The notes beneath the pieces are model-generated. The model was given only the letters and a program-made list of their open reading frames with translations. It did not search any database and was not told where the DNA came from. Source: Escherichia phage EI-SP-GF. From it: a DNA stretch of 64,000 nt. Location: the sequence record OR992645.1; one strand, written 5' to 3'. Positions 48,704 through 59,159 of the stretch are shown piece after piece. Every line of letters starts with the position of its first letter. Position 1 is the stretch's first letter. Position numbers and translations under genes: made by a program.

Positions 48704-49149
48704 AACAGATATAGCTCCTTATGAAAGTGGGCTTTCAATTTCTCACCGAGAAACTTCTTGATACCTTCCTCTAAAGTGTTTTCGATGTAGTCCAACTTAA
48801 CTGCTTCGATGGACATATCATAGATCGCCAGCTCTAAGCTGTCAAGTCCCATCATAGCATGAACCATAAGATTTTCATCTTCAGATACATTCAGGGGACT
48901 TCCTATAACATCTGGAGGTAGAATAGTTTCCCAATTATTCTGGGCGGTAGATCTCCCGCCATCCACCTTACGTCTCAGCTCGAATGTATTCTTAGTGTAG
49001 AACACTTCATAAGAAACGATACGACTGTCACTCTCATAATGGACGAAGTTCAAGTAGGAGCCCAGCCGTAGTCGGCAAACTTCTACCCCAAACCATTGTT
49101 TCTTATAAGAATTCAGGCTAATGCTGTCGCATTCACGTTTGCTCAACAC
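48700..49149 (-). CDS. hypothetical protein
   Basis: 149-aa ORF, GTG start with AAGGAGAG RBS. Confidence 0.5.
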   Translation of the reverse strand: MLSKRECDSISLNSYKKQWFGVEVCRLRLGSYLNFVHYESDSRIVSYEVFYTKNTFELRRKVDGGRSTAQNNWETILPPDVIGSPLNVSEDENLMVHAMMGLDSLELAIYDMSIEAVKLDYIENTLEEGIKKFLGEKLKAHFHKELYLL

Positions 49150-49165
49150 GGCTCTCTCCTTCTTG

Positions 49166-49399
49166 TTAATCTTCGTAAATAATGATTTCTGCTTTAGGTT
49201 TTCGTGCTTTCAGGTCCAGCTCTATCCAGTGCACCATCGCTGTTTCAAGAAAAACAGCCTGGATGCATCCGTCTTCAGCGTGCCCTACCAGCATAACAAG
49301 ATCTTCACATTCATCATCTGCATCACGGACATACAAGATCTCTCCAGATTCAAAGTCTTTCACAACCTGATTGCTGGATAATTTACGAATTTTTGCCAT
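49166..49399 (-). CDS. hypothetical acidic protein
   Basis: 77-aa ORF with RBS. Confidence 0.45.
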   Translation of the reverse strand: MAKIRKLSSNQVVKDFESGEILYVRDADDECEDLVMLVGHAEDGCIQAVFLETAMVHWIELDLKARKPKAEIIIYED

Positions 49400-49400
49400 A

Positions 49401-49664
49401 TCAGAAACCCTCTAAAAAGCTCTTGTAGAAAATAATCTCAGTATCCACACCAGTCACGATCTTGTCGTTCCTGATTTCATCTGTAAGATAGGTGTCAAAA
49501 CGCAGCACCTGTGTGGTATTGTCACACATCCACTCGGCTGTGACCATGGCAAAAATCTTGGCATCTTCATTATCTGGTGTGAATGTTACCACCTCACCGC
49601 ATTTAAACTTTTCGATAGGTTGCGTGTTAGCTTTTGGTTCTGCAATGGTGATTTTTGTAGTCAT
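49401..49664 (-). CDS. hypothetical protein
   Basis: 87-aa ORF with GGAGGA RBS; start overlaps upstream stop. Confidence 0.45.
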   Translation of the reverse strand: MTTKITIAEPKANTQPIEKFKCGEVVTFTPDNEDAKIFAMVTAEWMCDNTTQVLRFDTYLTDEIRNDKIVTGVDTEIIFYKSFLEGF

Positions 49665-49930
49665 TACTCTTCCTCCATAGTTTCACCAAATACTTCGATA
49701 CGAGCGTCAAGCTCTGTTGCTTTCAGCTCCCCGACAAAATCTTTCAGTTCTTTCTCGTCAAGATCGTATGCCCACACACAAGATGAGCATGCAGATTTCA
49801 CGATTAGCAGTGTAGATACACGGCCTGACTCTGTAATCATGCTCACAATGGTTCCTACAGGGAACGTGTTGATAGCTTTTTTAACTGGGCGTTCAGCTTT
49901 AATTACTACCTCTGTTGCCATAAATACCAT
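49664..49930 (-). CDS. hypothetical protein
   Basis: 88-aa ORF. Confidence 0.45.
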   Translation of the reverse strand: MVFMATEVVIKAERPVKKAINTFPVGTIVSMITESGRVSTLLIVKSACSSCVWAYDLDEKELKDFVGELKATELDARIEVFGETMEEE

Positions 49931-49936
49931 CCTCTC

Positions 49937-51397
49937 TTACTTAGCATACTCGATTAATTCCACAGTTTTCCCAAAGCTCGGGATATAATTTTTATTATAC
50001 CCTTCAGTGAGAACCCATAAAGTATCGTACTTTTTCCACTTGTTGTCAACAGCCTTTTGTTCAAAGTTATGCTCAAAGTAGAGGTCGGTAAGGACGATGA
50101 CATCTTTTGCATTCGGTATGTTAGCATCCAGATACTCGAACACGCAGGCGGCTGTTGTGCCCCATGTTGAGTGGACCTCATAGTTGATCATCTCATCGAT
50201 GTTACCGCGAGTGTATACTTTAACCTCTCCAACCTCGGTTGACCAACAGAACATCGTAACCTTAAACTCTTTATACAAATTGCACAACCCGGTGATCTCA
50301 TTGAACATTTTCTTTAAAGTTCTTTGCGAGATCGATCCAGAAACGTCCAAAGCCACTACAATATCTATGGTGTTTTCCGGATTACGACCAGGAACAATAA
50401 TGTGTTGATTCTTGTTTATAGCTCTAACTTTTCGCATTGTGGTGGTCAAAGACCCAGATCGGCGACCAGGTTTTCTGTAGGTTAGCTCGGCCTTTCGTTT
50501 AGACAACATACGTTGCTTAATAATATCTATATAGTTGATTACAGGCTTGCCTCTGTTTTTGACAAACTCGCGCACCGCCTCAGGGCAACGACCTCCTGAA
50601 GCTTGCATTGCTGCTTCCAACATGTCACCAGAGTCCTGCATGGCCTGATCTTTATCAGATTGACTGATTACTGGTTGCGGCTGATCATACCCCATAGCCT
50701 TTCCAAGATCATCACTAGTGCCACCGTTCCCGCTCATGTGATCATCGGTTTGTCGTTTATCTCCTTGGGAGTTCTCGCCTTTACCATTCTTACTTTTACC
50801 GCTATTCTGATCTCTTTGTTTATCAAGAACTGCATAGACGTTCTCAGCAATCCATCCATGAAACTTCATGTCGCAGTAGCAATTAGCTAAGAAGCCAAAA
50901 GGCTTACCTTTTACGAACTCAGTGCTTTTCCCCTTCGGGAAGAAAACACAAGGAGGCTTGCTAAAGTCAACCACAAGACCTGTGTTGATAACGTGATCAC
51001 AAGCAATATTGAACAGTTCCGGCTCAAAGCTTTTACCACGGACCAGATGATCACAGATAATATGCCCCACCTCATGTGACAGAAGGAAGGCCACCTCTTT
51101 CACAGATTTTGGGGAATAGAAAACCTCAGCCATCTCAAACTGCTTGTCAGTCAGAGATGCTTTAAGAATGGTTTTACGCTCATCTGCCAACCCCATAATG
51201 AACTCAGGGCTGTAGTAGATGCGTTTATGGTCTGTTGCCATAGTGGAGCACCATGTGTGGTTTTCTACGAACTGCAACCCTGACAACAGTGTGCCATAAA
51301 ACGGCAGCTTTTCAAGAAGGTACATGCGAGCGGCCTGCAGCATTCGCAAGGCATCATCTTTTTGTGCGGTAATGATTTCTGAACTTCTGCTATCCAT
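49937..51397 (-). CDS. VWA-domain protein with N-terminal HExxH metallopeptidase-like domain (DUF2201-type)
   Basis: HExxH motif in LLSHEVGHIICDH; MIDAS motif DxSxS in VVALDVSGSIS; ATG 51397 with GGAG RBS preferred over 51418. Confidence 0.7.
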   Translation of the reverse strand: MDSRSSEIITAQKDDALRMLQAARMYLLEKLPFYGTLLSGLQFVENHTWCSTMATDHKRIYYSPEFIMGLADERKTILKASLTDKQFEMAEVFYSPKSVKEVAFLLSHEVGHIICDHLVRGKSFEPELFNIACDHVINTGLVVDFSKPPCVFFPKGKSTEFVKGKPFGFLANCYCDMKFHGWIAENVYAVLDKQRDQNSGKSKNGKGENSQGDKRQTDDHMSGNGGTSDDLGKAMGYDQPQPVISQSDKDQAMQDSGDMLEAAMQASGGRCPEAVREFVKNRGKPVINYIDIIKQRMLSKRKAELTYRKPGRRSGSLTTTMRKVRAINKNQHIIVPGRNPENTIDIVVALDVSGSISQRTLKKMFNEITGLCNLYKEFKVTMFCWSTEVGEVKVYTRGNIDEMINYEVHSTWGTTAACVFEYLDANIPNAKDVIVLTDLYFEHNFEQKAVDNKWKKYDTLWVLTEGYNKNYIPSFGKTVELIEYAK

Positions 51398-51430
51398 TAA
51401 AACTCCAGAAGGGGCCATTGGCCCCTGTCA

Positions 51431-52420
51431 TTATTTAACGTGCTTGAAAATACCAGCCAACTCGGTCATTGTCATGCGAGTGGTCTTCATAAGGTCTGTC
51501 ATAGCCTTCTCCATGATTGGAGATACTACCATGAAGTTACCTTTGGTGAAACCTTTGTTCCAGTCGGTAACTAATAGGGGTTTAAGTCCGGCACCGAGAC
51601 GTTCACCAGTTAAAGCACAACATTTTCGAATGTATGTGCTCTTAAACTGGCTGAATGACAGATCAACTTTCATACCTGCATCGTAGAACGTCTGGCAATA
51701 GAAAGTGTAAGCTTTGGCAATCTCAACATCGTCAGGCAGTGCAGGAACCTCTTCTGTAAGCTCTTCTTCGACCCCTTGAGGCTCTTTTTCCTCTTCGTAA
51801 GCCTGTTGCGTCATCTCTTCAATCTCCTCTACTACAGGCTCGTTTACAATGTCAGAAATGTGCTTGTTGGCTCCACGATTAGCCATGAAGTTTTTAAAAT
51901 CCTGCATTGGTGACATATCTTCCTCCCATTCTTCGTCAAAGAGTGCTAGTTTATCCTCTTCCGTTCCATATTGCAAGATGAAATCTTCAAAAGTGTAATC
52001 ACCTTTCAATTTCTCCATACGCTCTTCGCTCAGGTGGAGCATCATCTGCTGGACAATTTTTCGATCAGTTTTATCTTTAATCAGGACTGCGGTCTTTTTA
52101 TCTACCAGACAATCCTTTAGAGAGTTGCATCTCAATCCCACCACACAACAGTTATCAACCGCATAAGGACCTTCATCATCTATCCGCTCTAGAGATGGGT
52201 AGAAAGGATTTCCCAGTCCGTTTTCATCTGTGTGCATGTCGAAAGGTATAAGGGTATAGTCGCATACCCCCTCTCCTAAAAGTTTTTTACCAAATAGGAG
52301 ATATTCTTCCCATGACAGGTTGAACTCTATATCTCGTTTCCGTGCATTATTCTGTTTGCGTCTGTATTTTTTGAGCAAGCGCTCTAACTCTTCTGGTGTA
52401 TAATATTTTTCAAGATTCAT
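51431..52420 (-). CDS. HNH_3-like domain protein (degenerate HNH/AP2-type, two related modules)
   Basis: SLERIDDEGPYAVDNCCVVGLRCNSLKD and LVTDWNKGFTKGNFMVVSPIMEKAM both fit the ..ID..G.Y...N..VV.....N..K pattern; ATG 52420 with AAGAGA RBS preferred over TTG 52486; central acidic linker. Confidence 0.4.
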   Translation of the reverse strand: MNLEKYYTPEELERLLKKYRRKQNNARKRDIEFNLSWEEYLLFGKKLLGEGVCDYTLIPFDMHTDENGLGNPFYPSLERIDDEGPYAVDNCCVVGLRCNSLKDCLVDKKTAVLIKDKTDRKIVQQMMLHLSEERMEKLKGDYTFEDFILQYGTEEDKLALFDEEWEEDMSPMQDFKNFMANRGANKHISDIVNEPVVEEIEEMTQQAYEEEKEPQGVEEELTEEVPALPDDVEIAKAYTFYCQTFYDAGMKVDLSFSQFKSTYIRKCCALTGERLGAGLKPLLVTDWNKGFTKGNFMVVSPIMEKAMTDLMKTTRMTMTELAGIFKHVK

Positions 52421-52451
52421 GAGTTGTCTCTTGTTCTCTGTGGGTGGAGAA

Positions 52452-52480
52452 ATCTTACCAAGCGCCTGGGGAGATGTCAA
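52452..52480 (-). promoter_or_regulatory. leftward early promoter TTGACA-N17-TAAGAT
   Basis: on minus strand: -35 ttgaca (52480-52475), 17-nt spacer, -10 taagat (52457-52452). Confidence 0.5.
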
Positions 52481-52493
52481 CCTCAAAAACGTG

Positions 52494-52522
52494 TTGACTT
52501 TACTCTAAATCTCCGATATAGT
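52494..52522 (+). promoter_or_regulatory. rightward early promoter TTGACT-N17-TATAGT
   Basis: ttgact 52494-52499, 17-nt spacer, tatagt 52517-52522; AGGAG RBS and ATG 52563 downstream. Confidence 0.5.
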
Positions 52523-52562
52523 GCACCCATTCGAAAGAAAACTAACATAGGAGCACTTATTC

Positions 52563-53462
52563 ATGGCAAATCTTAACAGTTTTAGCACCAGGTGGCAACA
52601 GGATATAACAACCAATCTTTCAGCTGGAGATATCCTTTCTGCAATTTACGAGGCTTTGGATGATAAAGCTACTTCAAGATCGGTTTGTACTAATCCGCTA
52701 ATTCCTATGGTGATGAAGGTAATTGAGCGGAGGTTGGTATCTGGGTCCGATAAGTGGACATACCTTGATAATGGAGGGCATACTTACTCCAACGGATATG
52801 TTGATATAAAAGTGGAATACGCAGTATCATACCGCCGGAGCGGTTCTGTAACTTTCAACTTCTCTGGAGGTTTCCGATCTCTGGCAACTTCACCTTTTGT
52901 TTCCTCAGAGGAGAAGTATGAGCTGCCATTTCTTTGGATGATGGCTAACGCGACAGGAAAAACCCCCGTTAGCATCCGAGTAAAATACAACTACAACGGA
53001 TCTAGTAAGATCTATGCCGAGAGTGTCTCAGCAAGTTTTTATTTTGTGATGGGGGATGGAATCCTCAAACATATAAAGATGTGCGATATGCATGATGTTA
53101 TAAATGAAGTGACTGATAAGAATGTCCTAGTGAAAGACCTCAATAATTTTTATACACCTGGAGACTATTACGTCAACCGCCCACTGTGCATCTTTAATGC
53201 CGCACACCCTTTAGGTGAGTATTTGATCGCCAATAGCGATATTGCCAATAATCGCTTCGAGGTAGCAAGAGTACAGAATGAGGTGTTGACATCTTGCAAG
53301 AGCGGTGATAAGTTTACCGAAGAAGAGATGGGTGTTTTAGAGATGATGGGATATAAGTGTAGCCTTTGGGTAGATGAGGTGTTTAATGACGGCATCTATG
53401 GACAGGATATTTACCCACTAAAGAAGTATACTGATTCCAGTTTAATTTACGCGGAGATTTGA
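52563..53462 (+). CDS. hypothetical protein (first gene of rightward block)
   Basis: 299-aa ORF with AGGAG RBS. Confidence 0.5.
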   Translation: MANLNSFSTRWQQDITTNLSAGDILSAIYEALDDKATSRSVCTNPLIPMVMKVIERRLVSGSDKWTYLDNGGHTYSNGYVDIKVEYAVSYRRSGSVTFNFSGGFRSLATSPFVSSEEKYELPFLWMMANATGKTPVSIRVKYNYNGSSKIYAESVSASFYFVMGDGILKHIKMCDMHDVINEVTDKNVLVKDLNNFYTPGDYYVNRPLCIFNAAHPLGEYLIANSDIANNRFEVARVQNEVLTSCKSGDKFTEEEMGVLEMMGYKCSLWVDEVFNDGIYGQDIYPLKKYTDSSLIYAEI

Positions 53463-53464
53463 CT

Positions 53465-53737
53465 ATGATGAAGTCATGTGGTAGTGTATATTATGTTGGT
53501 GAGAATGTTCAGGCAGATAGTGTGTGGAAATCCATTAAGTCCACCACCGATGATGCCTTCTTGAGCGGGTTATGTTTCCCCAATCCTGGGGACATTCTCC
53601 CTCACCCTGGGGATTTTGTTGTCAACAAGACAGACGGTTATACCGTGTGCCTGATGGTTGAAAAAATCTTTTTAGACACTAGACACAATCACCGTCTTGT
53701 GCTAAAATTTCAAGAATGTAAAATGACAGTTGCCTAA
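53465..53737 (+). CDS. hypothetical protein
   Basis: ORF in track starts TTG 53459; ATG 53465 with GGAG RBS. Confidence 0.45.
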   Translation: MMKSCGSVYYVGENVQADSVWKSIKSTTDDAFLSGLCFPNPGDILPHPGDFVVNKTDGYTVCLMVEKIFLDTRHNHRLVLKFQECKMTVA

Positions 53738-53749
53738 GGAGGCCTATCA

Positions 53750-54106
53750 ATGTCTAAAGTTACTTATCGTGCAGCTATTTACTGCAATGAGCAACCAATC
53801 AATAGTGATGGTCACTGCTTTTTTAAAGAAAATCAGTTGGGCTGTATTGCCCTCCCTGATGAAGGGGAAGGTTATATGATTGCATTGACAGGGTTTGAGC
53901 CTGAAGCCTTGGAAGCCAATCTGGACTACCTAGTAGAGAAGGGTGCTGCAGACTTGGTTGCCAATGGCCTCTCCATAAGCCTTGAAGAAGTGGAGCGCTT
54001 CATGGGCAATTACCGTGTAGTGCGTGAGTTCACTATCGAGGTGGAAACTCCAGAGTGGGGTAGCACTGAAACTAATGCTGAAGAAAAAGAAGAGGGGGTA
54101 GAATAA
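53750..54106 (+). CDS. hypothetical acidic protein
   Basis: 118 aa, AGGAGG RBS. Confidence 0.5.
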   Translation: MSKVTYRAAIYCNEQPINSDGHCFFKENQLGCIALPDEGEGYMIALTGFEPEALEANLDYLVEKGAADLVANGLSISLEEVERFMGNYRVVREFTIEVETPEWGSTETNAEEKEEGVE

Positions 54107-54363
54107 TGAAAGTGCAGATCTTGACTAATGCCGAGAAGATGTTTATCGAAGATACGCCTTTTGAAACTGGTGAGCTACAGTTTGTATATTTTGTTGACTT
54201 AGATAAGGTTTTTCCTGCGCTGAATCTGGGTTTGGAGAAAGTACCTTATAAAACTCTATGCCAGGTTGTCCGTGCCTTAGCAGCAGATGGAGAGTTCCAC
54301 ACCCTTGAAGATATCCAGACCTATGGGTATCTTGAACTGCAACGAGAAGAAGAGGTAGACTGA
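54106..54363 (+). CDS. hypothetical acidic protein
   Basis: 85 aa, start overlaps previous stop. Confidence 0.45.
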   Translation: MKVQILTNAEKMFIEDTPFETGELQFVYFVDLDKVFPALNLGLEKVPYKTLCQVVRALAADGEFHTLEDIQTYGYLELQREEEVD

Positions 54364-54365
54364 TA

Positions 54366-54746
54366 ATGGCCCAGTGGAAGACAACAGTTGACCTTCATGA
54401 TCAGTGGTTAGGACGCATAACTGAAGACGGGAAACTGGTAGAGTGGGACAACAAGCATGTTAGCGAGTTGGCAAGTATTGTGGCTGGCAAGTTACGCTCC
54501 AAGTTCCCTGAACAACTGGATCCTGATAATTCAAAGTTCGATCCTGAGTTGGAGGATGTTGTATACTACTTCGATACCGTGGATGACTACGATGCGTGGC
54601 TTGCAGCACGGAATCTTTACCCGCAAGGCTCTGCTATGCGCCAGATGGAAGAAGATTATCCTCCGTGTGAGCAATTCAATAGCGCAATGACTTGCCTCTA
54701 TGATTGGGCAGATAAGAACCTTGTCTGGATTCGAACTGCATTCTAG
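54366..54746 (+). CDS. hypothetical protein
   Basis: 126 aa. Confidence 0.5.
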   Translation: MAQWKTTVDLHDQWLGRITEDGKLVEWDNKHVSELASIVAGKLRSKFPEQLDPDNSKFDPELEDVVYYFDTVDDYDAWLAARNLYPQGSAMRQMEEDYPPCEQFNSAMTCLYDWADKNLVWIRTAF

Positions 54747-54761
54747 TAGGTGGTGGCAGGG

Positions 54762-55055
54762 ATGCCGCTTAGAAGAGTAATAAACATGTTATACCAGAAA
54801 CACGAACTTTGTGCAGAAAAAGAGTTAAATTTTGACAAAGTTATCCACAGATATTGTTACGGGAAAACCGGAAGATACCTAAAAAGGTGGACTCCAGCAT
54901 TCTTTCACCCCAGCAGGAGACTAAGCCCTGAAGAAGCAACAGCAGAAAGGGTTGCATACAACTGGGAAGTTGTGTACGATATTGACAGATCCGATGTGAC
55001 ATCTGTTTTGGAAAACTTTGAAAACACTTACACACAAGTAGAGGACTTTTACTAA
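54762..55055 (+). CDS. hypothetical protein
   Basis: ORF in track starts GTG 54750; ATG 54762 with GGTGG RBS. Confidence 0.45.
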   Translation: MPLRRVINMLYQKHELCAEKELNFDKVIHRYCYGKTGRYLKRWTPAFFHPSRRLSPEEATAERVAYNWEVVYDIDRSDVTSVLENFENTYTQVEDFY

Positions 55056-56239
55056 TGTCAAGAAACGTATTTGAAAGTGGTCAAATCACTGTCCGTGAGT
55101 TGCCAGCTATTATTCAGTTTGCCCAGCGTCATAACCGATCTGTCCTGATTTTAGGACCAATGGGCGTGGGTAAGAGCCAGGTGATGAAGCAGATTGCCGA
55201 TAATATGTTCGGTGAGCGAGATGACAACCTGGTTGACGTGCGACTGTCAGATAAAGATCCTGCCGACTTATCTGGGCTACCTATCCCTGTAGAAGCGGAT
55301 GGAACTACACGTACAGTGTTTGCAATTCCAGAATTTTGGCCTTCGGATCCGGACTGGAGCGGAATTATCTTTCTGGATGAGCTTACTCATGCAGATAATT
55401 ACCTGCAAAAGGTTGCAATGCAGATTATGCTCGACCACAAGTGCGGCACCTATGCATTCCCTAAAGGCTCTGTTTTTGTGGCTGCGGGTAACCGTTCTAC
55501 AGATGGTGCGGTTCTTTCGGCGCTCGAAGCTCCTCTGGCTAACCGCTTTATCATTGTAGAGGTTACAAGCAATGCAGAGGTGTTTATTGAGGACTACGCA
55601 TTCCTTAATGGGGTGCATTCCTCTGTAATTGGATATCTGAAAAGAGTTCCATCAGCTATCGATAATTATGAGGCTATGGCTGAGATTAATTGTCCATCTT
55701 TTGCCACACCGCGATCTTGGGTTGCTGCATCTGATATCTTGCACGATTTTGACAGCGGTATTATTTCTGACGCTATGGCCCGTGTTCTTCTGCAAGGTGC
55801 TATTGGTCACACTGCAGCGGTAGAGATCTGGACCTACCACACCAAGAAACGCAACTTACCGGAAATCGGTCGGATTATGGCAGGTGGTTGCAAAGAATAC
55901 GTAGGTCCTAAGCAGCCAGACATCTTGTGGATTCTTGGATCTGAAGGTTGTATCGCTATTCGTAATATGATGGAAAATGCAAGTATCTCTGACGAAGATC
56001 TTGTCAGCTGCGTGGCAAACTTCCTCGATTTCCTTTGGGAAAACTTCAAGGACGAGAACCGAGATTTTGTATTCTCAGTCTTTATGGCGATGATGAAACC
56101 TAACGCCTTAGGAAATGCCTTGCTTATCGGTAAAGGGCGTGACAAGATCGTTGCTCAACTGATCAAAGCGTACCCAAACCTGATGAAGATTGTAAAAGAG
56201 TTTGGTGAAGAGTTTAGCGCCATTTTAGCTAAAGCTTGA
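55055..56239 (+). CDS. MoxR-type AAA+ ATPase
   Basis: Walker A GPMGVGKS, Walker B IIFLDEL, sensor-1 AAGN and Arg-finger-like ANRF. Confidence 0.75.
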   Translation: MSRNVFESGQITVRELPAIIQFAQRHNRSVLILGPMGVGKSQVMKQIADNMFGERDDNLVDVRLSDKDPADLSGLPIPVEADGTTRTVFAIPEFWPSDPDWSGIIFLDELTHADNYLQKVAMQIMLDHKCGTYAFPKGSVFVAAGNRSTDGAVLSALEAPLANRFIIVEVTSNAEVFIEDYAFLNGVHSSVIGYLKRVPSAIDNYEAMAEINCPSFATPRSWVAASDILHDFDSGIISDAMARVLLQGAIGHTAAVEIWTYHTKKRNLPEIGRIMAGGCKEYVGPKQPDILWILGSEGCIAIRNMMENASISDEDLVSCVANFLDFLWENFKDENRDFVFSVFMAMMKPNALGNALLIGKGRDKIVAQLIKAYPNLMKIVKEFGEEFSAILAKA

Positions 56240-56248
56240 GGAGGTTGT

Positions 56249-56629
56249 ATGGCTAAAGTAGGTAAGCGGGGAAACTACTTGGTGGTATTGACCGAGGAGC
56301 CGGAGAAGGAGTACGAATGCAGCTCCACTTGTGTGATCGATATCCGAGAAAAAGATGTGGATGAAATCTGGTTTAAAATACTGGACGCTTGCGACAGCAG
56401 TGACTATTTCTTCATCTATGTCAACGATAAAGCTGGGTTCTTCCATGACGATGGGGAATTACCGTATGAAATTTATGAACTTGTAGAGGCTTGCCATCGT
56501 GGAGATGCGGAGTTGTTTGGTCTACGGCTGAAAAGCGGTAAATTCTTCTATCAAGATGAATGCATGAATCTTCACAACTTCGTAGAGGGGACTTGCAACG
56601 ATGGAGAGATTTTGGCACACTACGATTAA
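56249..56629 (+). CDS. hypothetical protein
   Basis: 126 aa, GAGGAGG RBS. Confidence 0.5.
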   Translation: MAKVGKRGNYLVVLTEEPEKEYECSSTCVIDIREKDVDEIWFKILDACDSSDYFFIYVNDKAGFFHDDGELPYEIYELVEACHRGDAELFGLRLKSGKFFYQDECMNLHNFVEGTCNDGEILAHYD

Positions 56630-56643
56630 TTTCTAAGACACAC

Positions 56644-56671
56644 CCCCGCTTCGGCGGGGATTTTCTATTTG
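56644..56671 (+). terminator. rho-independent terminator (UUCG-loop hairpin)
   Basis: ccccgc-ttcg-gcgggg followed by attttctattt. Confidence 0.6.
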
Positions 56672-56679
56672 GAGCTATT

Positions 56680-57180
56680 GTGAAAATTAAAATCTTTGCT
56701 ATTATTTTGAGCGCATTTTTATCGCTGCCTGTTGTTGCAGCACCAAAACAAAAAGTATATCACACTTGCAAGCCGTCGGATACTAAGGAAAACATTCTAG
56801 CATGCAATATCTACAGGGAGGCTAGAGGGGATGGCACGATGGGTATGCTGGCATCCGGATTTGCCACACTAAACAGGAAATCCCACCCCAAATACCCAGA
56901 CACTATAAGAAAGATTGTCTACCAACCTAACCAGTTTTCGTGGACAAACCACGGCAAAACTTTTAAGGTGACAGAAAAAGATTCATGGGATCACGCTAAA
57001 AGTCTTGCAAAGATGCTTCTAAAGGTCTATAATAACAACCATGTTGCATACATGGCTATGGATATAACAGGTGGAGCAACACACTACCATACAACAAAAG
57101 TACGACCGAAATGGGCAAAAAAGATGCAGAGGACAGCTCAATTCGGGAGTCATATCTACTACAAGGAGCGCAATAAATGA
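56680..57180 (+). CDS. endolysin, SleB-like cell wall hydrolase (Hydrolase_2) with N-terminal signal peptide
   Basis: GTG 56680 with GGAG RBS (upstream part of track ORF contains terminator hairpin); signal-like MKIKIFAIILSAFLSLPVVAAP; CNIYREARGDG...NQFSW motifs of SleB-type hydrolases. Confidence 0.65.
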   Translation: MKIKIFAIILSAFLSLPVVAAPKQKVYHTCKPSDTKENILACNIYREARGDGTMGMLASGFATLNRKSHPKYPDTIRKIVYQPNQFSWTNHGKTFKVTEKDSWDHAKSLAKMLLKVYNNNHVAYMAMDITGGATHYHTTKVRPKWAKKMQRTAQFGSHIYYKERNK

Positions 57181-59159
57181 TTGTAAACAGCAATGAAACT
57201 AAAGCGGTGCTAACTGGGAATATGGAGGTAACCCGGGGATCAATTTCTCTGAACAAAGAGACTTTTGGGCTAATCATCAAAGGGATTTATGAAGATAAGG
57301 TACTGGCAAGCTGCCGTGAACCGATCTTCAATGCTGTGGACTCCCATGTTGAGTCTGGACGGGGTGATGTTCCGATCATCATTCACTCTCCTACAGACCT
57401 TGAACCATACTTCTTTGTGCAGGACGTTGGATTAGGCATGTCAGAAGAGATGGTCCGCAACACCTTCATGAACCTCGGAGAGTCAACCAAGCGCAACAGC
57501 AACGCTCTGGTAGGCAATAAAGGTGTTGGTTCAAAGGCCCCGTTCAGTATGGTGGACACTTTCGATGTAATCAGTGTGCACAACGGTGTGGAAAGCACAT
57601 ACCTATTGTTCTTAGACCAGGGTATCCCAAATGTCACCAAGATCCGTGAGCGGAAGACTGAAGAGCACAATGGGGTAAAAGTTCAGTTTCATGTTAAGAA
57701 AGAGCATGTTCTGAAATATCGTACCGCTATTGCATCATGCCTGCGCTATGCAAAATTTCCGTTCACTGTCACCGATCCGATGACGAGCAAGATGCTGGAG
57801 GGGGACAAAGTAGAGGCGCAGTATCGCTACGAGAAAGATGGTTGGAAAATGACTATCCTGAAAGGTTATACCAGCTCTGATGAGAGCCGTGTTGTGATGG
57901 GTCACCAACCTTACCGCTCTAAGTTCCTGGAGACATTGACCGATTACCCTGCAATCTGCGTGGAAATTCCTATTGGGGATTGCAATATTAACCCTGGGCG
58001 TGAATGGACCATAGAGGGCCATGACGACGGTGGATTCCAGGATCGCCTGGAGGCCTTTGTCAAAGAAGGTATACGTCTTCGCGGGGCAGAAGTTGTTGCA
58101 GAACTGGAGACGGCAAAAACCTCCGCAGAAGCACGTGAAATGATGAAGAATAGTGGGGTGTTCGGACACATCTTCGGTAAAAACTTTATGTGGAACCGTT
58201 GGGAAGAAACAGGACTTGGAGACTTAGGCGATTGTGAAATTTTCGCTGGCGGCTTAAATAAAGGCCGCATAGGCTATGCTCGTTATGGAAAGTCAGAGTT
58301 CTTACGGGGAGTCTATTTAGTATTTAACGACGGAGACGGCAAATATAACCGAAATAAGTGTAACTACTTAAGCGAGATCACCGGACGCAACGTTTTCTAT
58401 TGCCGTAACACGGATCTGGTGGAAGAGTTTAAAGAAGCGGCACACCACCCGTTCTTTGCAGATACGGTCAAATTGTTATCAGAGCTCCCTCGCCGACCTG
58501 TCAAGAAAGGTGAAACAAAAACTCGTTATGAGCCAGGCTATTGGGTTAAAAAACTTGAGAAGGATGGTTACTTCCGCCGTGAACGTATTACTAAGGCAGA
58601 GTTCCGGAAGATTAAACACTGCATCCCTTATGAGGGTGATATCCAACGTGGAAGTTGTTGGCTGGGGCAGATGAGTAACATCTACCAGCAAGATTATGAC
58701 CGTGTACGTGCGGCACTTCAGATTCCTGAAGGTGAAGATCTGTATCTGGTATCTGAATCTCGTCTGCTTTGGACTGATCCTGATTGCCAGTATGTTACAG
58801 AGAAGAATGTGGAGCACCTGTTGAAAGAGGATGCTTGGAAATTCTTACTGACCCGTGCAGCAAATGAGACTTCTTATGACAGCCTGTATAGACAATTAGG
58901 GAAAATTATTCCCATGCAAGATTTTGGAAATTATCGGCCACATTTCCACAAGTGGGAAGGTAACACCACGTGGAAGCACAGTGAGCTAAATCATCGTGCC
59001 AAAATCTTAATCGCCAACCGAGTTAAATGCGGGAAGGCCTATATTGCAAGATTGGAAAAGAAATACCCACTTTTGAAGCATGTAGGCTTGAAATATTGGG
59101 ACACCCCTGCTATGATTGAATACCGTGAGCTGATTGATACAAAGAATAACACCAAATAA
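57177..59159 (+). CDS. rIIA-like protein with N-terminal GHKL (histidine-kinase-like) ATPase fold
   Basis: N box EPIFNAVDS, G1 box VQDVGLGMS, G2 box GNKGVGSKAPF; 660 aa; ATGA overlap with endolysin stop. Confidence 0.5.
   Translation: MIVNSNETKAVLTGNMEVTRGSISLNKETFGLIIKGIYEDKVLASCREPIFNAVDSHVESGRGDVPIIIHSPTDLEPYFFVQDVGLGMSEEMVRNTFMNLGESTKRNSNALVGNKGVGSKAPFSMVDTFDVISVHNGVESTYLLFLDQGIPNVTKIRERKTEEHNGVKVQFHVKKEHVLKYRTAIASCLRYAKFPFTVTDPMTSKMLEGDKVEAQYRYEKDGWKMTILKGYTSSDESRVVMGHQPYRSKFLETLTDYPAICVEIPIGDCNINPGREWTIEGHDDGGFQDRLEAFVKEGIRLRGAEVVAELETAKTSAEAREMMKNSGVFGHIFGKNFMWNRWEETGLGDLGDCEIFAGGLNKGRIGYARYGKSEFLRGVYLVFNDGDGKYNRNKCNYLSEITGRNVFYCRNTDLVEEFKEAAHHPFFADTVKLLSELPRRPVKKGETKTRYEPGYWVKKLEKDGYFRRERITKAEFRKIKHCIPYEGDIQRGSCWLGQMSNIYQQDYDRVRAALQIPEGEDLYLVSESRLLWTDPDCQYVTEKNVEHLLKEDAWKFLLTRAANETSYDSLYRQLGKIIPMQDFGNYRPHFHKWEGNTTWKHSELNHRAKILIANRVKCGKAYIARLEKKYPLLKHVGLKYWDTPAMIEYRELIDTKNNTK

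Follow-up and report, generated by a model that had tools for sequence, protein, structure and literature searches.

In Escherichia phage EI-SP-GF (sequence record OR992645.1), a MoxR-class AAA+ ATPase and a second protein, which joins a putative metallopeptidase domain to a VWA domain with a complete MIDAS, or metal-ion-dependent adhesion site, are encoded on opposite strands of a divergent gene region. We analyzed a 64,000-nucleotide stretch of this phage, referred to throughout as the window, and find that the two proteins are homologs of gp24 and gp25 of phage N4, and that their genes, adjacent in N4 and in distant relatives, are split in rV5-like phages. Considered together with published genetics of the orthologous pair in phage Bas54, these results lead us to favor, with moderate confidence, a model in which the two proteins form a cooperating, host-dependent anti-defense remodeling module.

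Both open reading frames (ORFs) are present at the coordinates and on the strands given by a first-pass annotation of the window, which had been made from the letters of the sequence. For the minus-strand gene, the longest ORF extends to 51418; the start at 51397, giving 486 residues, is the one used in GenBank orthologs. The main features are as follows.

55055–56239, plus strand: MoxR-class AAA+ ATPase of 394 residues, homolog of N4 gp24 and ortholog of bas54_0063
49937–51397, minus strand: predicted adaptor of 486 residues with putative zincin-like (DUF2201_N) and VWA/MIDAS domains, homolog of N4 gp25 and ortholog of bas54_0055
52409–52562, no strand: divergent intergenic region and strand switch, which parts the minus-strand block (VWA gene) from the plus-strand block (ATPase)

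The window belongs to an rV5-like E. coli myovirus of the genus Vequintavirus, and the 8.5 kb around the pair match 124 phage records at 90%–99% nucleotide identity. The first-pass annotation treated the pair as an unrecognized, open feature, and in this respect it needs amending: in GenBank records of the genus the ATPase gene is entered as “MoxR ATPase” and its partner as “metallopeptidase” or “VWA-like domain-containing protein,” N4 gp24 and gp25 are known core genes (PMC4193335), and a jumbo-phage pair has been described (PMC7824862). The pair is already annotated and already described as a family, with genetic data that point away from virion assembly. To this we add a census of gene arrangement, including one full unlinking with both genes intact, a direct structural placement of the ATPase beside NorQ and CbbQ, and the phenotype of the partner, taken from the supplementary table of a preprint.

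Insertions in the Bas54 Orthologs Are Tolerated on K-12 and Depleted in CFE311

The functional data come from HIDEN-SEQ, in which transposon sequencing was applied to Bas54, that is, Escherichia phage MaxBurger (10.1101/2025.11.20.689424). The ATPase and its partner are identical to bas54_0063 and bas54_0055 at 392/394 (99.5%) and 478/486 (98.4%) positions, respectively, and the genes are syntenic orthologs. On K-12, both Bas54 genes are classed as “Non-essential,” with 60 of 64 and 81 of 86 TA sites disrupted, respectively, and the head, tail, and prohead-protease genes of the same phage received essentially no insertions (10.1101/2025.11.20.689424). In the clinical isolate CFE311, the insertion mean for bas54_0063 fell from 148.7 to 0.0 (log2 fold change −7.23, q = 0) and that for bas54_0055 from 219.7 to 47.2 (log2 fold change −2.20, or ∼4.6-fold; p = 0.0009, q = 0.009) (10.1101/2025.11.20.689424).

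The seven genes that lie between the pair, together with the genes flanking the ATPase, were not depleted in this comparison (log2 fold change −0.08 to +0.79), nor were bas54_0054 and bas54_0053, which are directly downstream of bas54_0055 in its operon (10.1101/2025.11.20.689424). Because these downstream and intervening genes were spared, the effect on bas54_0055 is not simply a polar or regional one; polarity in particular is ruled out as its cause by the undepleted insertions in bas54_0054 and bas54_0053.

When either bas54_0063 or bas54_0140, which encodes a 99-residue protein of unknown function and lies outside the window, is cleanly knocked out, the phage becomes specifically sensitive to the two-gene system DS-28 cloned from CFE311 (10.1101/2025.11.20.689424). 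In the literature DS-28 appears as a small, uncharacterized, plasmid-associated two-gene family and nothing beyond that. The need for the rV5-like ATPase in the presence of DS-28 is the single experimental handle on the module. Since neither gene is needed on K-12 and the ATPase becomes essential only in a host with DS-28, the target of the module would be host specific, an anti-phage defense, rather than a structural protein of the phage.

These data bear directly on a role in virion assembly, with the ATPase as chaperone and its partner as maturation protease, which we consider highly improbable and which for rV5-like phages is largely refuted. For a homologous pair in group 2.2 jumbo phages, comprising a MoxR ATPase and a vWA protein with an N-terminal metallopeptidase, Iyer et al. 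2021 (Viruses 13:63) proposed such a role, with proteolytic processing and the Acidianus two-tailed virus as precedent (PMC7824862). One jumbo-phage contig has the gene among those for HSP20, ClpS, and ClpP, and the same role was implicitly expected in the first-pass annotation, whose suggested read-outs of burst size and virion morphology presume a core morphogenetic function. Against this, both orthologs are dispensable on K-12 (∼94% of TA sites disrupted), where structural genes are essentially without insertions, and the ATPase is conditionally essential against DS-28. The pair also lies in the early/replication-side region, by rIIA/rIIB and a DNA helicase and outside the structural module, and the N4 pair are middle genes beside nucleotide metabolism (PMC4193335).

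Three further observations concern the same data set. The sheet “Data S6” of Extended Data Table 8 is titled “resampling_K-12_vs_CFE303,” while its TRANSIT command uses the CFE311 library, and the next sheet holds identical numbers, as if one comparison had been dropped or entered twice. The DNA helicase gene bas54_0068, which follows rIIB, is non-essential on K-12 and has a log2 fold change of −6.32 in CFE311. Likewise host dependent are bas54_0150–0152 (log2 fold change −6.2 to −7.2 in CFE311). Neither the helicase nor these three genes are discussed in the preprint.

The ATPase Belongs to a Divergent Branch of the MoxR Class

The ATPase carries a Walker A motif (GPMGVGKS, residues 34–41), a Walker B motif (FLDE, residues 106–109), sensor 1 (N146, in AAGN), an arginine finger (R164, in ANRF), and sensor 2 (R220, in ATPR). 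All five elements are invariant across an alignment of 50 homologs, and the protein is therefore expected, from its sequence, to be an active motor; it is presumably hexameric.

Its assignment within the AAA+ family is less direct. As a single sequence the protein falls below every Pfam AAA gathering cut-off (16.7 bits for AAA_5, against a cut-off of 22) and has no AAA_3 match, and single-sequence searches of Pfam, NCBIfam, PADLOC, and the PDB return generic P-loop matches only, such as the Walker A region of ClpB/ClpC. Since these searches failed to place the ATPase in MoxR, profiles and structure were required. Beyond close phage relatives, a search of 5.8 billion proteins yields hundreds of ∼360-residue proteins at E ∼1e-45 that are ∼35% identical across 85% of the length; they bear PF07726 (AAA_3) and PF07728 (AAA_5), and a few bear PF20030. 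A profile built from the 50 homologs reaches E = 1e-11 with the AAA modules of midasin/Rea1 and matches no characterized MoxR protein at E < 0.001.

An AlphaFold model computed from the 50-homolog alignment (pLDDT 84.4, pTM 0.77) predicts a helix-2-insert β-hairpin, with strands 75–81 and 84–90 following β2, a short hairpin before sensor 1 (residues ∼128–134), and a helical C-terminal extension (residues ∼300–394). When this model was compared with the PDB by Foldseek, the best 15 matches were NorQ and CbbQ2, with E values down to 6.7e-8 and TM-scores to the target of 0.59–0.66. The NorQ matches are NorQ-NorD complexes released in March 2026, and the CbbQ2 entry is described as “a MoxR AAA+-ATPase.” The first-pass assignment to the MoxR type is borne out by these structural matches and by the invariant motifs. 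We conclude that the ATPase is of the MoxR class and represents a divergent branch of it.

The Partner Joins a Putative Metallopeptidase Domain to a VWA Domain

The partner matches PF13203 (DUF2201_N, “putative metallopeptidase domain”) at E = 1.8e-28, its score of 100.4 bits exceeding the 23.2-bit cut-off, and it matches PF09967 (DUF2201, VWA-like) at E = 3.5e-11, both E values being far beyond chance. The DUF2201_N match recurs in all 29 of its homologs. The partner divides into three parts.

50798–51397, minus strand: N-terminal putative metallopeptidase domain, residues 1–200 (HExxH codons at 51062–51076)
50714–50800, minus strand: linker rich in Gly, Asp, Ser, and Asn, residues 200–228, pLDDT < 50, joining the N-terminal domain to the C-terminal half
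49940–50380, minus strand: VWA domain with complete MIDAS, residues ∼340–486 (DVSGS at residues 351–355, codons 50333–50347)

In the predicted structure, the N-terminal domain (pLDDT > 90) comprises a three-stranded sheet followed by a helix (residues 99–118) that carries HEVGH (residues 108–112) and H117. The layout of this model resembles a minimal zincin. Across the 29-homolog alignment, which reaches down to 23% identity, H108, H112, and the five MIDAS residues never vary; conservation of E109 is 90% or more, and one homolog reads HAVCH in place of HExxH. The helix that follows the HExxHxxxxH helix contains the invariant residues N130, A132, D134, and N138. Candidates for a third metal ligand are H117, conserved in at least 90% of homologs, and the invariant D134 on this next helix.

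Matches of the N-terminal domain to known peptidases are weak. Its profile matches M48 peptidases alone (3c37, Ste24p, and BepA; E = 0.36–1.5), over the active-site helix only. Below threshold, Pfam searches run member by member return Peptidase_M48 (13 of 29 homologs), SprT-like, M78, and two “putative phage/zinc peptidase” families. The full sequence of the partner has no matches among PDB sequences.

The C-terminal half is more readily placed. Its MIDAS is formed by D351-V-S353-G-S355, T414, and D438, and a VWA (Rossmann-like) fold is supported by structure searches with the whole protein, which list VWA matches alone. The best Foldseek match is BatB, and the VWA domains of NorD and BchD are among the nearest solved structures. 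The partner therefore combines, as the first-pass annotation had reported, an HExxH motif with a VWA MIDAS, as shown by PF13203, PF09967, HEVGH, and the full set of MIDAS residues. We describe it as a putative metallopeptidase domain that a disordered linker connects to a VWA domain bearing a complete MIDAS; the first of these domains may have proteolytic activity, and the regulated proteolytic step at which the first-pass annotation hinted is a hypothesis.

The label “HNH endonuclease,” attached to this family in PHROG (phrog_1314) and in the RefSeq entries for N4 gp25 and phage FV3 (NC_019517), was considered and rejected. No HNH family matches any of the 29 homologs, even at E ≤ 1, and the label is therefore a propagated mis-annotation.

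The Genes Are Adjacent in Distant Relatives and Split in the rV5-like Clade

When both proteins were compared by tblastn with 50,697 phage genomes, 812 records matched the ATPase and 678 matched the partner, spanning N4-like podoviruses to jumbo myoviruses. Record counts by host genus (ATPase/partner) are 213/213 for Escherichia, 108/104 for Pseudomonas, 26/26 for Pectobacterium, 17/17 for Cronobacter, and 17/17 for Achromobacter. Within the genus, the ATPase is conserved at 99% or more in 101 records and the partner at 95%–99% in 113 records.

The arrangement of the two genes was surveyed at 80 viral-contig loci found through alignment to the ATPase, with the partner located by an hmmsearch profile. 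Most of these loci (68 of 80) are distant, with ∼33% identity in the ATPase, and downstream sequence of more than 470 bp is available for 58 of the 68. In all 58, a DUF2201 gene lies directly downstream of the ATPase on the same strand, at a gap of 89–1032 bp (mostly 95–175), although many of the contigs are closely related and do not represent 58 independent lineages. The same adjacent, co-directional order from ATPase to DUF2201 gene is found in a 149-kb Cronobacter-phage-like contig (L020) and at L003–L005; the tally of informative distant loci with this order is 59 of 59.

A different arrangement characterizes the rV5-like loci, where the ATPase is 44%–73% identical to that of the window. 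At 10 of 11 such loci the partner lies 3.5–5.3 kb upstream on the opposite strand; the divergent split seen in rV5-like loci is present at L089 and L091–L093. In the window the two genes are separated by 3,658 bp and seven intervening genes. The first-pass annotation had described the pair as split across a divergent region rather than adjacent as in most bacterial MoxR-VWA pairs, and the census, together with the adjacent N4 genes, agrees with this description. On the basis of the census, adjacency is the ancestral state and the split is derived in the rV5-like clade; among the relatives sampled, and as judged from their sequences, the split is confined to that clade, with both genes retained.

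The eleventh rV5-like locus shows full unlinking. On contig IMGVR_UViG_3300045988_163358 (136 kb), the ATPase is at one end (L012) and the partner lies ∼98 kb away (L097), or no less than 36 kb away should the contig be circularly permuted. The motifs of both proteins are intact (HELRH and DVSGS in the partner), and no second ATPase is found near the L097 partner. We had considered L012 as a natural partner-less variant, a possibility ruled out by the intact DUF2201 gene on the same contig. Catalytic and MIDAS residues are intact in both genes of every rV5-like genome examined, even where the genes are unlinked.

Two side observations arise from these loci. The L012 ATPase is preceded by large same-strand ORFs of 596 and 1658 residues in place of the usual early genes. 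On a 578-kb jumbo-phage contig (L006/L007), the DUF2201 gene is preceded by an ORF of 465–484 residues that weakly matches the ATPase profile, and it stands among HSP20, ClpS, and ClpP-like genes, in what looks like a proteostasis cluster.

The gene neighborhoods also bear on whether the pair might act as a chaperone for metal-cofactor insertion or enzyme activation, of the NorQD, CbbQO, or CobST type, on a phage or host metalloenzyme, for example in nucleotide metabolism. Both the N4 pair and the L003–L005 pair adjoin genes for dCTP deaminase, thymidylate synthase, and 5′-3′ exonuclease, as this reading would lead one to expect, and the nearest solved structures are NorQ/CbbQ for the ATPase and NorD/BchD for the VWA domain. 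We nonetheless regard it as improbable. Metal-insertion adaptors lack any counterpart of the conserved HExxH domain, the requirement for the ATPase is host specific and maps to a cloned defense system, and no client enzyme is consistently linked to the pair across lineages, the neighbors in rV5-like phages being different.

A Model for a Host-Dependent Remodeling Module

On the model that we favor, the pair in the window would be the form taken in Vequintavirus by a module of the N4 gp24/gp25 type that is widely conserved among phages. With NorQ-NorD, CbbQ-CbbO, and midasin as templates, we propose that the VWA domain docks on the ATPase ring and that the metal of its MIDAS binds an acidic residue on a target protein and so selects it. 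ATP hydrolysis by the MoxR motor would then remodel this target, which the HExxH domain may subsequently cleave. The most likely target would be a host component, specifically one of bacterial anti-phage defense, and the pair may be expressed early. The ATPase-VWA operon would have been broken up by a rearrangement in the ancestor shared by rV5-like phages, leaving one gene on each arm of a divergent early-gene region; after the split both genes appear to have kept their catalytic residues, and their genetic coupling now appears to be only partial. The proposal made in the first-pass annotation, that MoxR-VWA pairs act as remodeling modules, holds on this model.

Several points weigh against the model. 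The functional data come from one preprint, with one usable host comparison. The second gene tied to DS-28 is bas54_0140 and not the VWA partner; the clean-knockout data for DS-28 cover bas54_0063 and bas54_0140, and the VWA partner is not discussed (10.1101/2025.11.20.689424). A depletion of about −2.2 is common to several other genes in CFE311, for example 0123–0129 (10.1101/2025.11.20.689424), and that of bas54_0055 may have nothing to do with DS-28 or with the ATPase. A PADLOC search gives no match. The zincin fold is predicted from Pfam membership, motif conservation, and non-significant M48 matches, and a physical interaction between the ATPase and the VWA protein is suggested by analogy with other MoxR systems. 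Finally, as core genes of N4-like phages, the pair could serve a more basic function in those phages.

That the two proteins act jointly is not established, because the partner phenotype is the weaker one (−2.2 versus −7.2) and because the second DS-28 gene is bas54_0140. The two could instead be uncoupled in rV5-like phages, with the ATPase countering DS-28 alone or with another partner, such as bas54_0140, and the VWA protein having a separate, minor host-dependent role. We regard this as a real but clearly lesser possibility. It accounts for the distance between the two CFE311 phenotypes (−7.23 and −2.20) and for the naming of bas54_0063 and bas54_0140, but not bas54_0055, as anti-DS-28 genes; it also fits the separate transcription units, the separation by at least 36 kb in one relative, and the better conservation of the ATPase than of its partner within the genus. 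Other observations are less easily reconciled with it. Catalytic and MIDAS residues remain intact in both genes of all rV5-like genomes examined, per-genus counts of the two genes are nearly equal across the phage collection, and bas54_0055 is significantly depleted in CFE311, as bas54_0063 is, when the neighboring genes are not. The characterized MoxR systems considered here, moreover, use a VWA partner; they are NorQ-NorD, as well as CbbQ/O and RavA/ViaA, which are cited in the NorQ papers (PMC13036017, PMC9976466).

We therefore retain the cooperating module as the favored model. Its extension to the family as a whole is more tentative and, in our estimation, unlikely to hold: modules of the N4 gp24/gp25 type, comprising a motor, a MIDAS adaptor, and a putative zincin, would be general anti-defense machines that use MIDAS and ATP to dismantle or cleave host immune complexes, and in rV5-like phages the motor would have become partly autonomous from the adaptor after the break-up of the operon. 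If this were true, the module would represent a new mechanistic class of counter-defense, ATP driven and proteolytic, as opposed to a stoichiometric inhibitor or a small-molecule sponge. Homologs of N4 gp24/gp25 are among the most widespread phage gene pairs without a mechanism, being found in rV5-like, jumbo, and many uncultured phages. Should loss of the VWA/peptidase partner, and of its HExxH and MIDAS residues, phenocopy loss of the ATPase, an ATP-driven, MIDAS-targeted counter-defense machine would be established.

Features of the Divergent Region and Neighboring Genes

The strand switch at 52409–52562 contains back-to-back sites resembling σ70 promoters, running from 52480 to 52452 on the minus strand and from 52494 to 52522 on the plus strand, which are consensus matches only. 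Promoter-like sites in the region number 17, compared with 12.9 ± 3.5 in shuffled sequences, and because this count is not above chance, the divergent promoter pair is only suggestive. The sign of the GC skew switches over the minus-strand block.

At 51410–51426 a perfect GC-rich palindrome, AGGGGCCATTGGCCCCT, occupies part of the 33 bp that separate the VWA/peptidase start from the minus-strand gene upstream of it. This palindrome may be a hairpin or an attenuator.

Directly upstream of the ATPase is a small ORF (54750–55055, plus strand), the stop codon of which overlaps the ATPase start (TAATG). Some records, as well as phrog_13164, name it “ATPase” or “MoxR ATPase,” although it has no P-loop or Pfam match, and the label is probably annotation spill-over. 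Its Bas54 ortholog, bas54_0062, shows no depletion in CFE311.

The gene at 51431–52486 on the minus strand, with an annotated start at ∼52408, carries an “anti-sigma factor” annotation and has no Pfam match. Its PHROG matches are to HNH endonuclease/endonuclease VII families and to families of the T4 Srd-like “decoy of sigma70.” The Bas54 counterpart is non-essential and is not depleted in CFE311.

For the region at 49000–57500 of the window, 16 unannotated MG0656xx records entered as “Campylobacter phage” (host C. jejuni) are ∼94.8% identical over 8.5 kb to E. coli Vequintavirus genomes, and their host attribution looks doubtful.

Comparison with Known Systems

The closest counterpart of the pair is that of N4. 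Profile alignment with hhalign relates the window ATPase to gp24 (E = 8.9e-37, probability 99.9%) and its partner to gp25 (E = 7.5e-41, probability 100%), the latter with HELWH and a DTSGS MIDAS. The N4 genes, which are among the 14 core genes of N4-like phages (Schitoviridae), are middle transcribed and of unknown function (PMC4193335, PMC2784036). They are adjacent and co-directional, whereas 3.66 kb and a change of strand separate those of the window. The proteins of the window are also the longer ones, at 394 versus 352 residues for the ATPase and 486 versus 380 residues for the partner; compared with gp25, the partner has sequence inserted behind the N-terminal sheet, a long acidic/Gly linker, and an extra basic segment ahead of the VWA domain. 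The order of MoxR ATPase, rIIA-rIIB, and DNA helicase, which in the window runs from 55055 to beyond 59159, is common to the window myovirus and the podovirus N4, and this shared rIIA-rIIB-helicase order suggests an old common module of early/middle genes.

The group 2.2 jumbo phages have the same two-protein architecture as the window, and in Escherichia phage UB, which is matched by both proteins in tblastn, the genes are adjacent. For the rV5-like group, the virion-assembly role proposed for the jumbo-phage pair is not matched by the Bas54 genetics, in which an essential function in morphogenesis finds no support. The MoxR-vWA system of the Acidianus two-tailed virus (cited by PMC7824862), compared here by its description only, resembles the window in being a virus-encoded MoxR ATPase with a VWA protein; it is archaeal, lacks a peptidase domain, and is needed for assembly of the viral tail.

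NorQ-NorD and CbbQ-CbbO, with 16%–22% sequence identity to the window proteins, are encoded in bacterial operons and act on the metalloenzymes cNOR and Rubisco, respectively, and neither NorD nor CbbO has an HExxH domain. In plan, however, NorD corresponds to the window partner, with an N-terminal domain, a disordered linker, and a VWA domain (PMC9976466, PMC13036017), the linkers of the two proteins being in analogous positions (PMC13036017). The NorD VWA domain plugs the NorQ ring with a finger-like extension, and ATP hydrolysis by NorQ pulls the linker of the adaptor (PMC9976466, PMC13036017). The NorD MIDAS is dispensable for binding of the ATPase and is needed for action on the target, an acidic residue of which completes the metal coordination (PMC9976466, PMC13036017).

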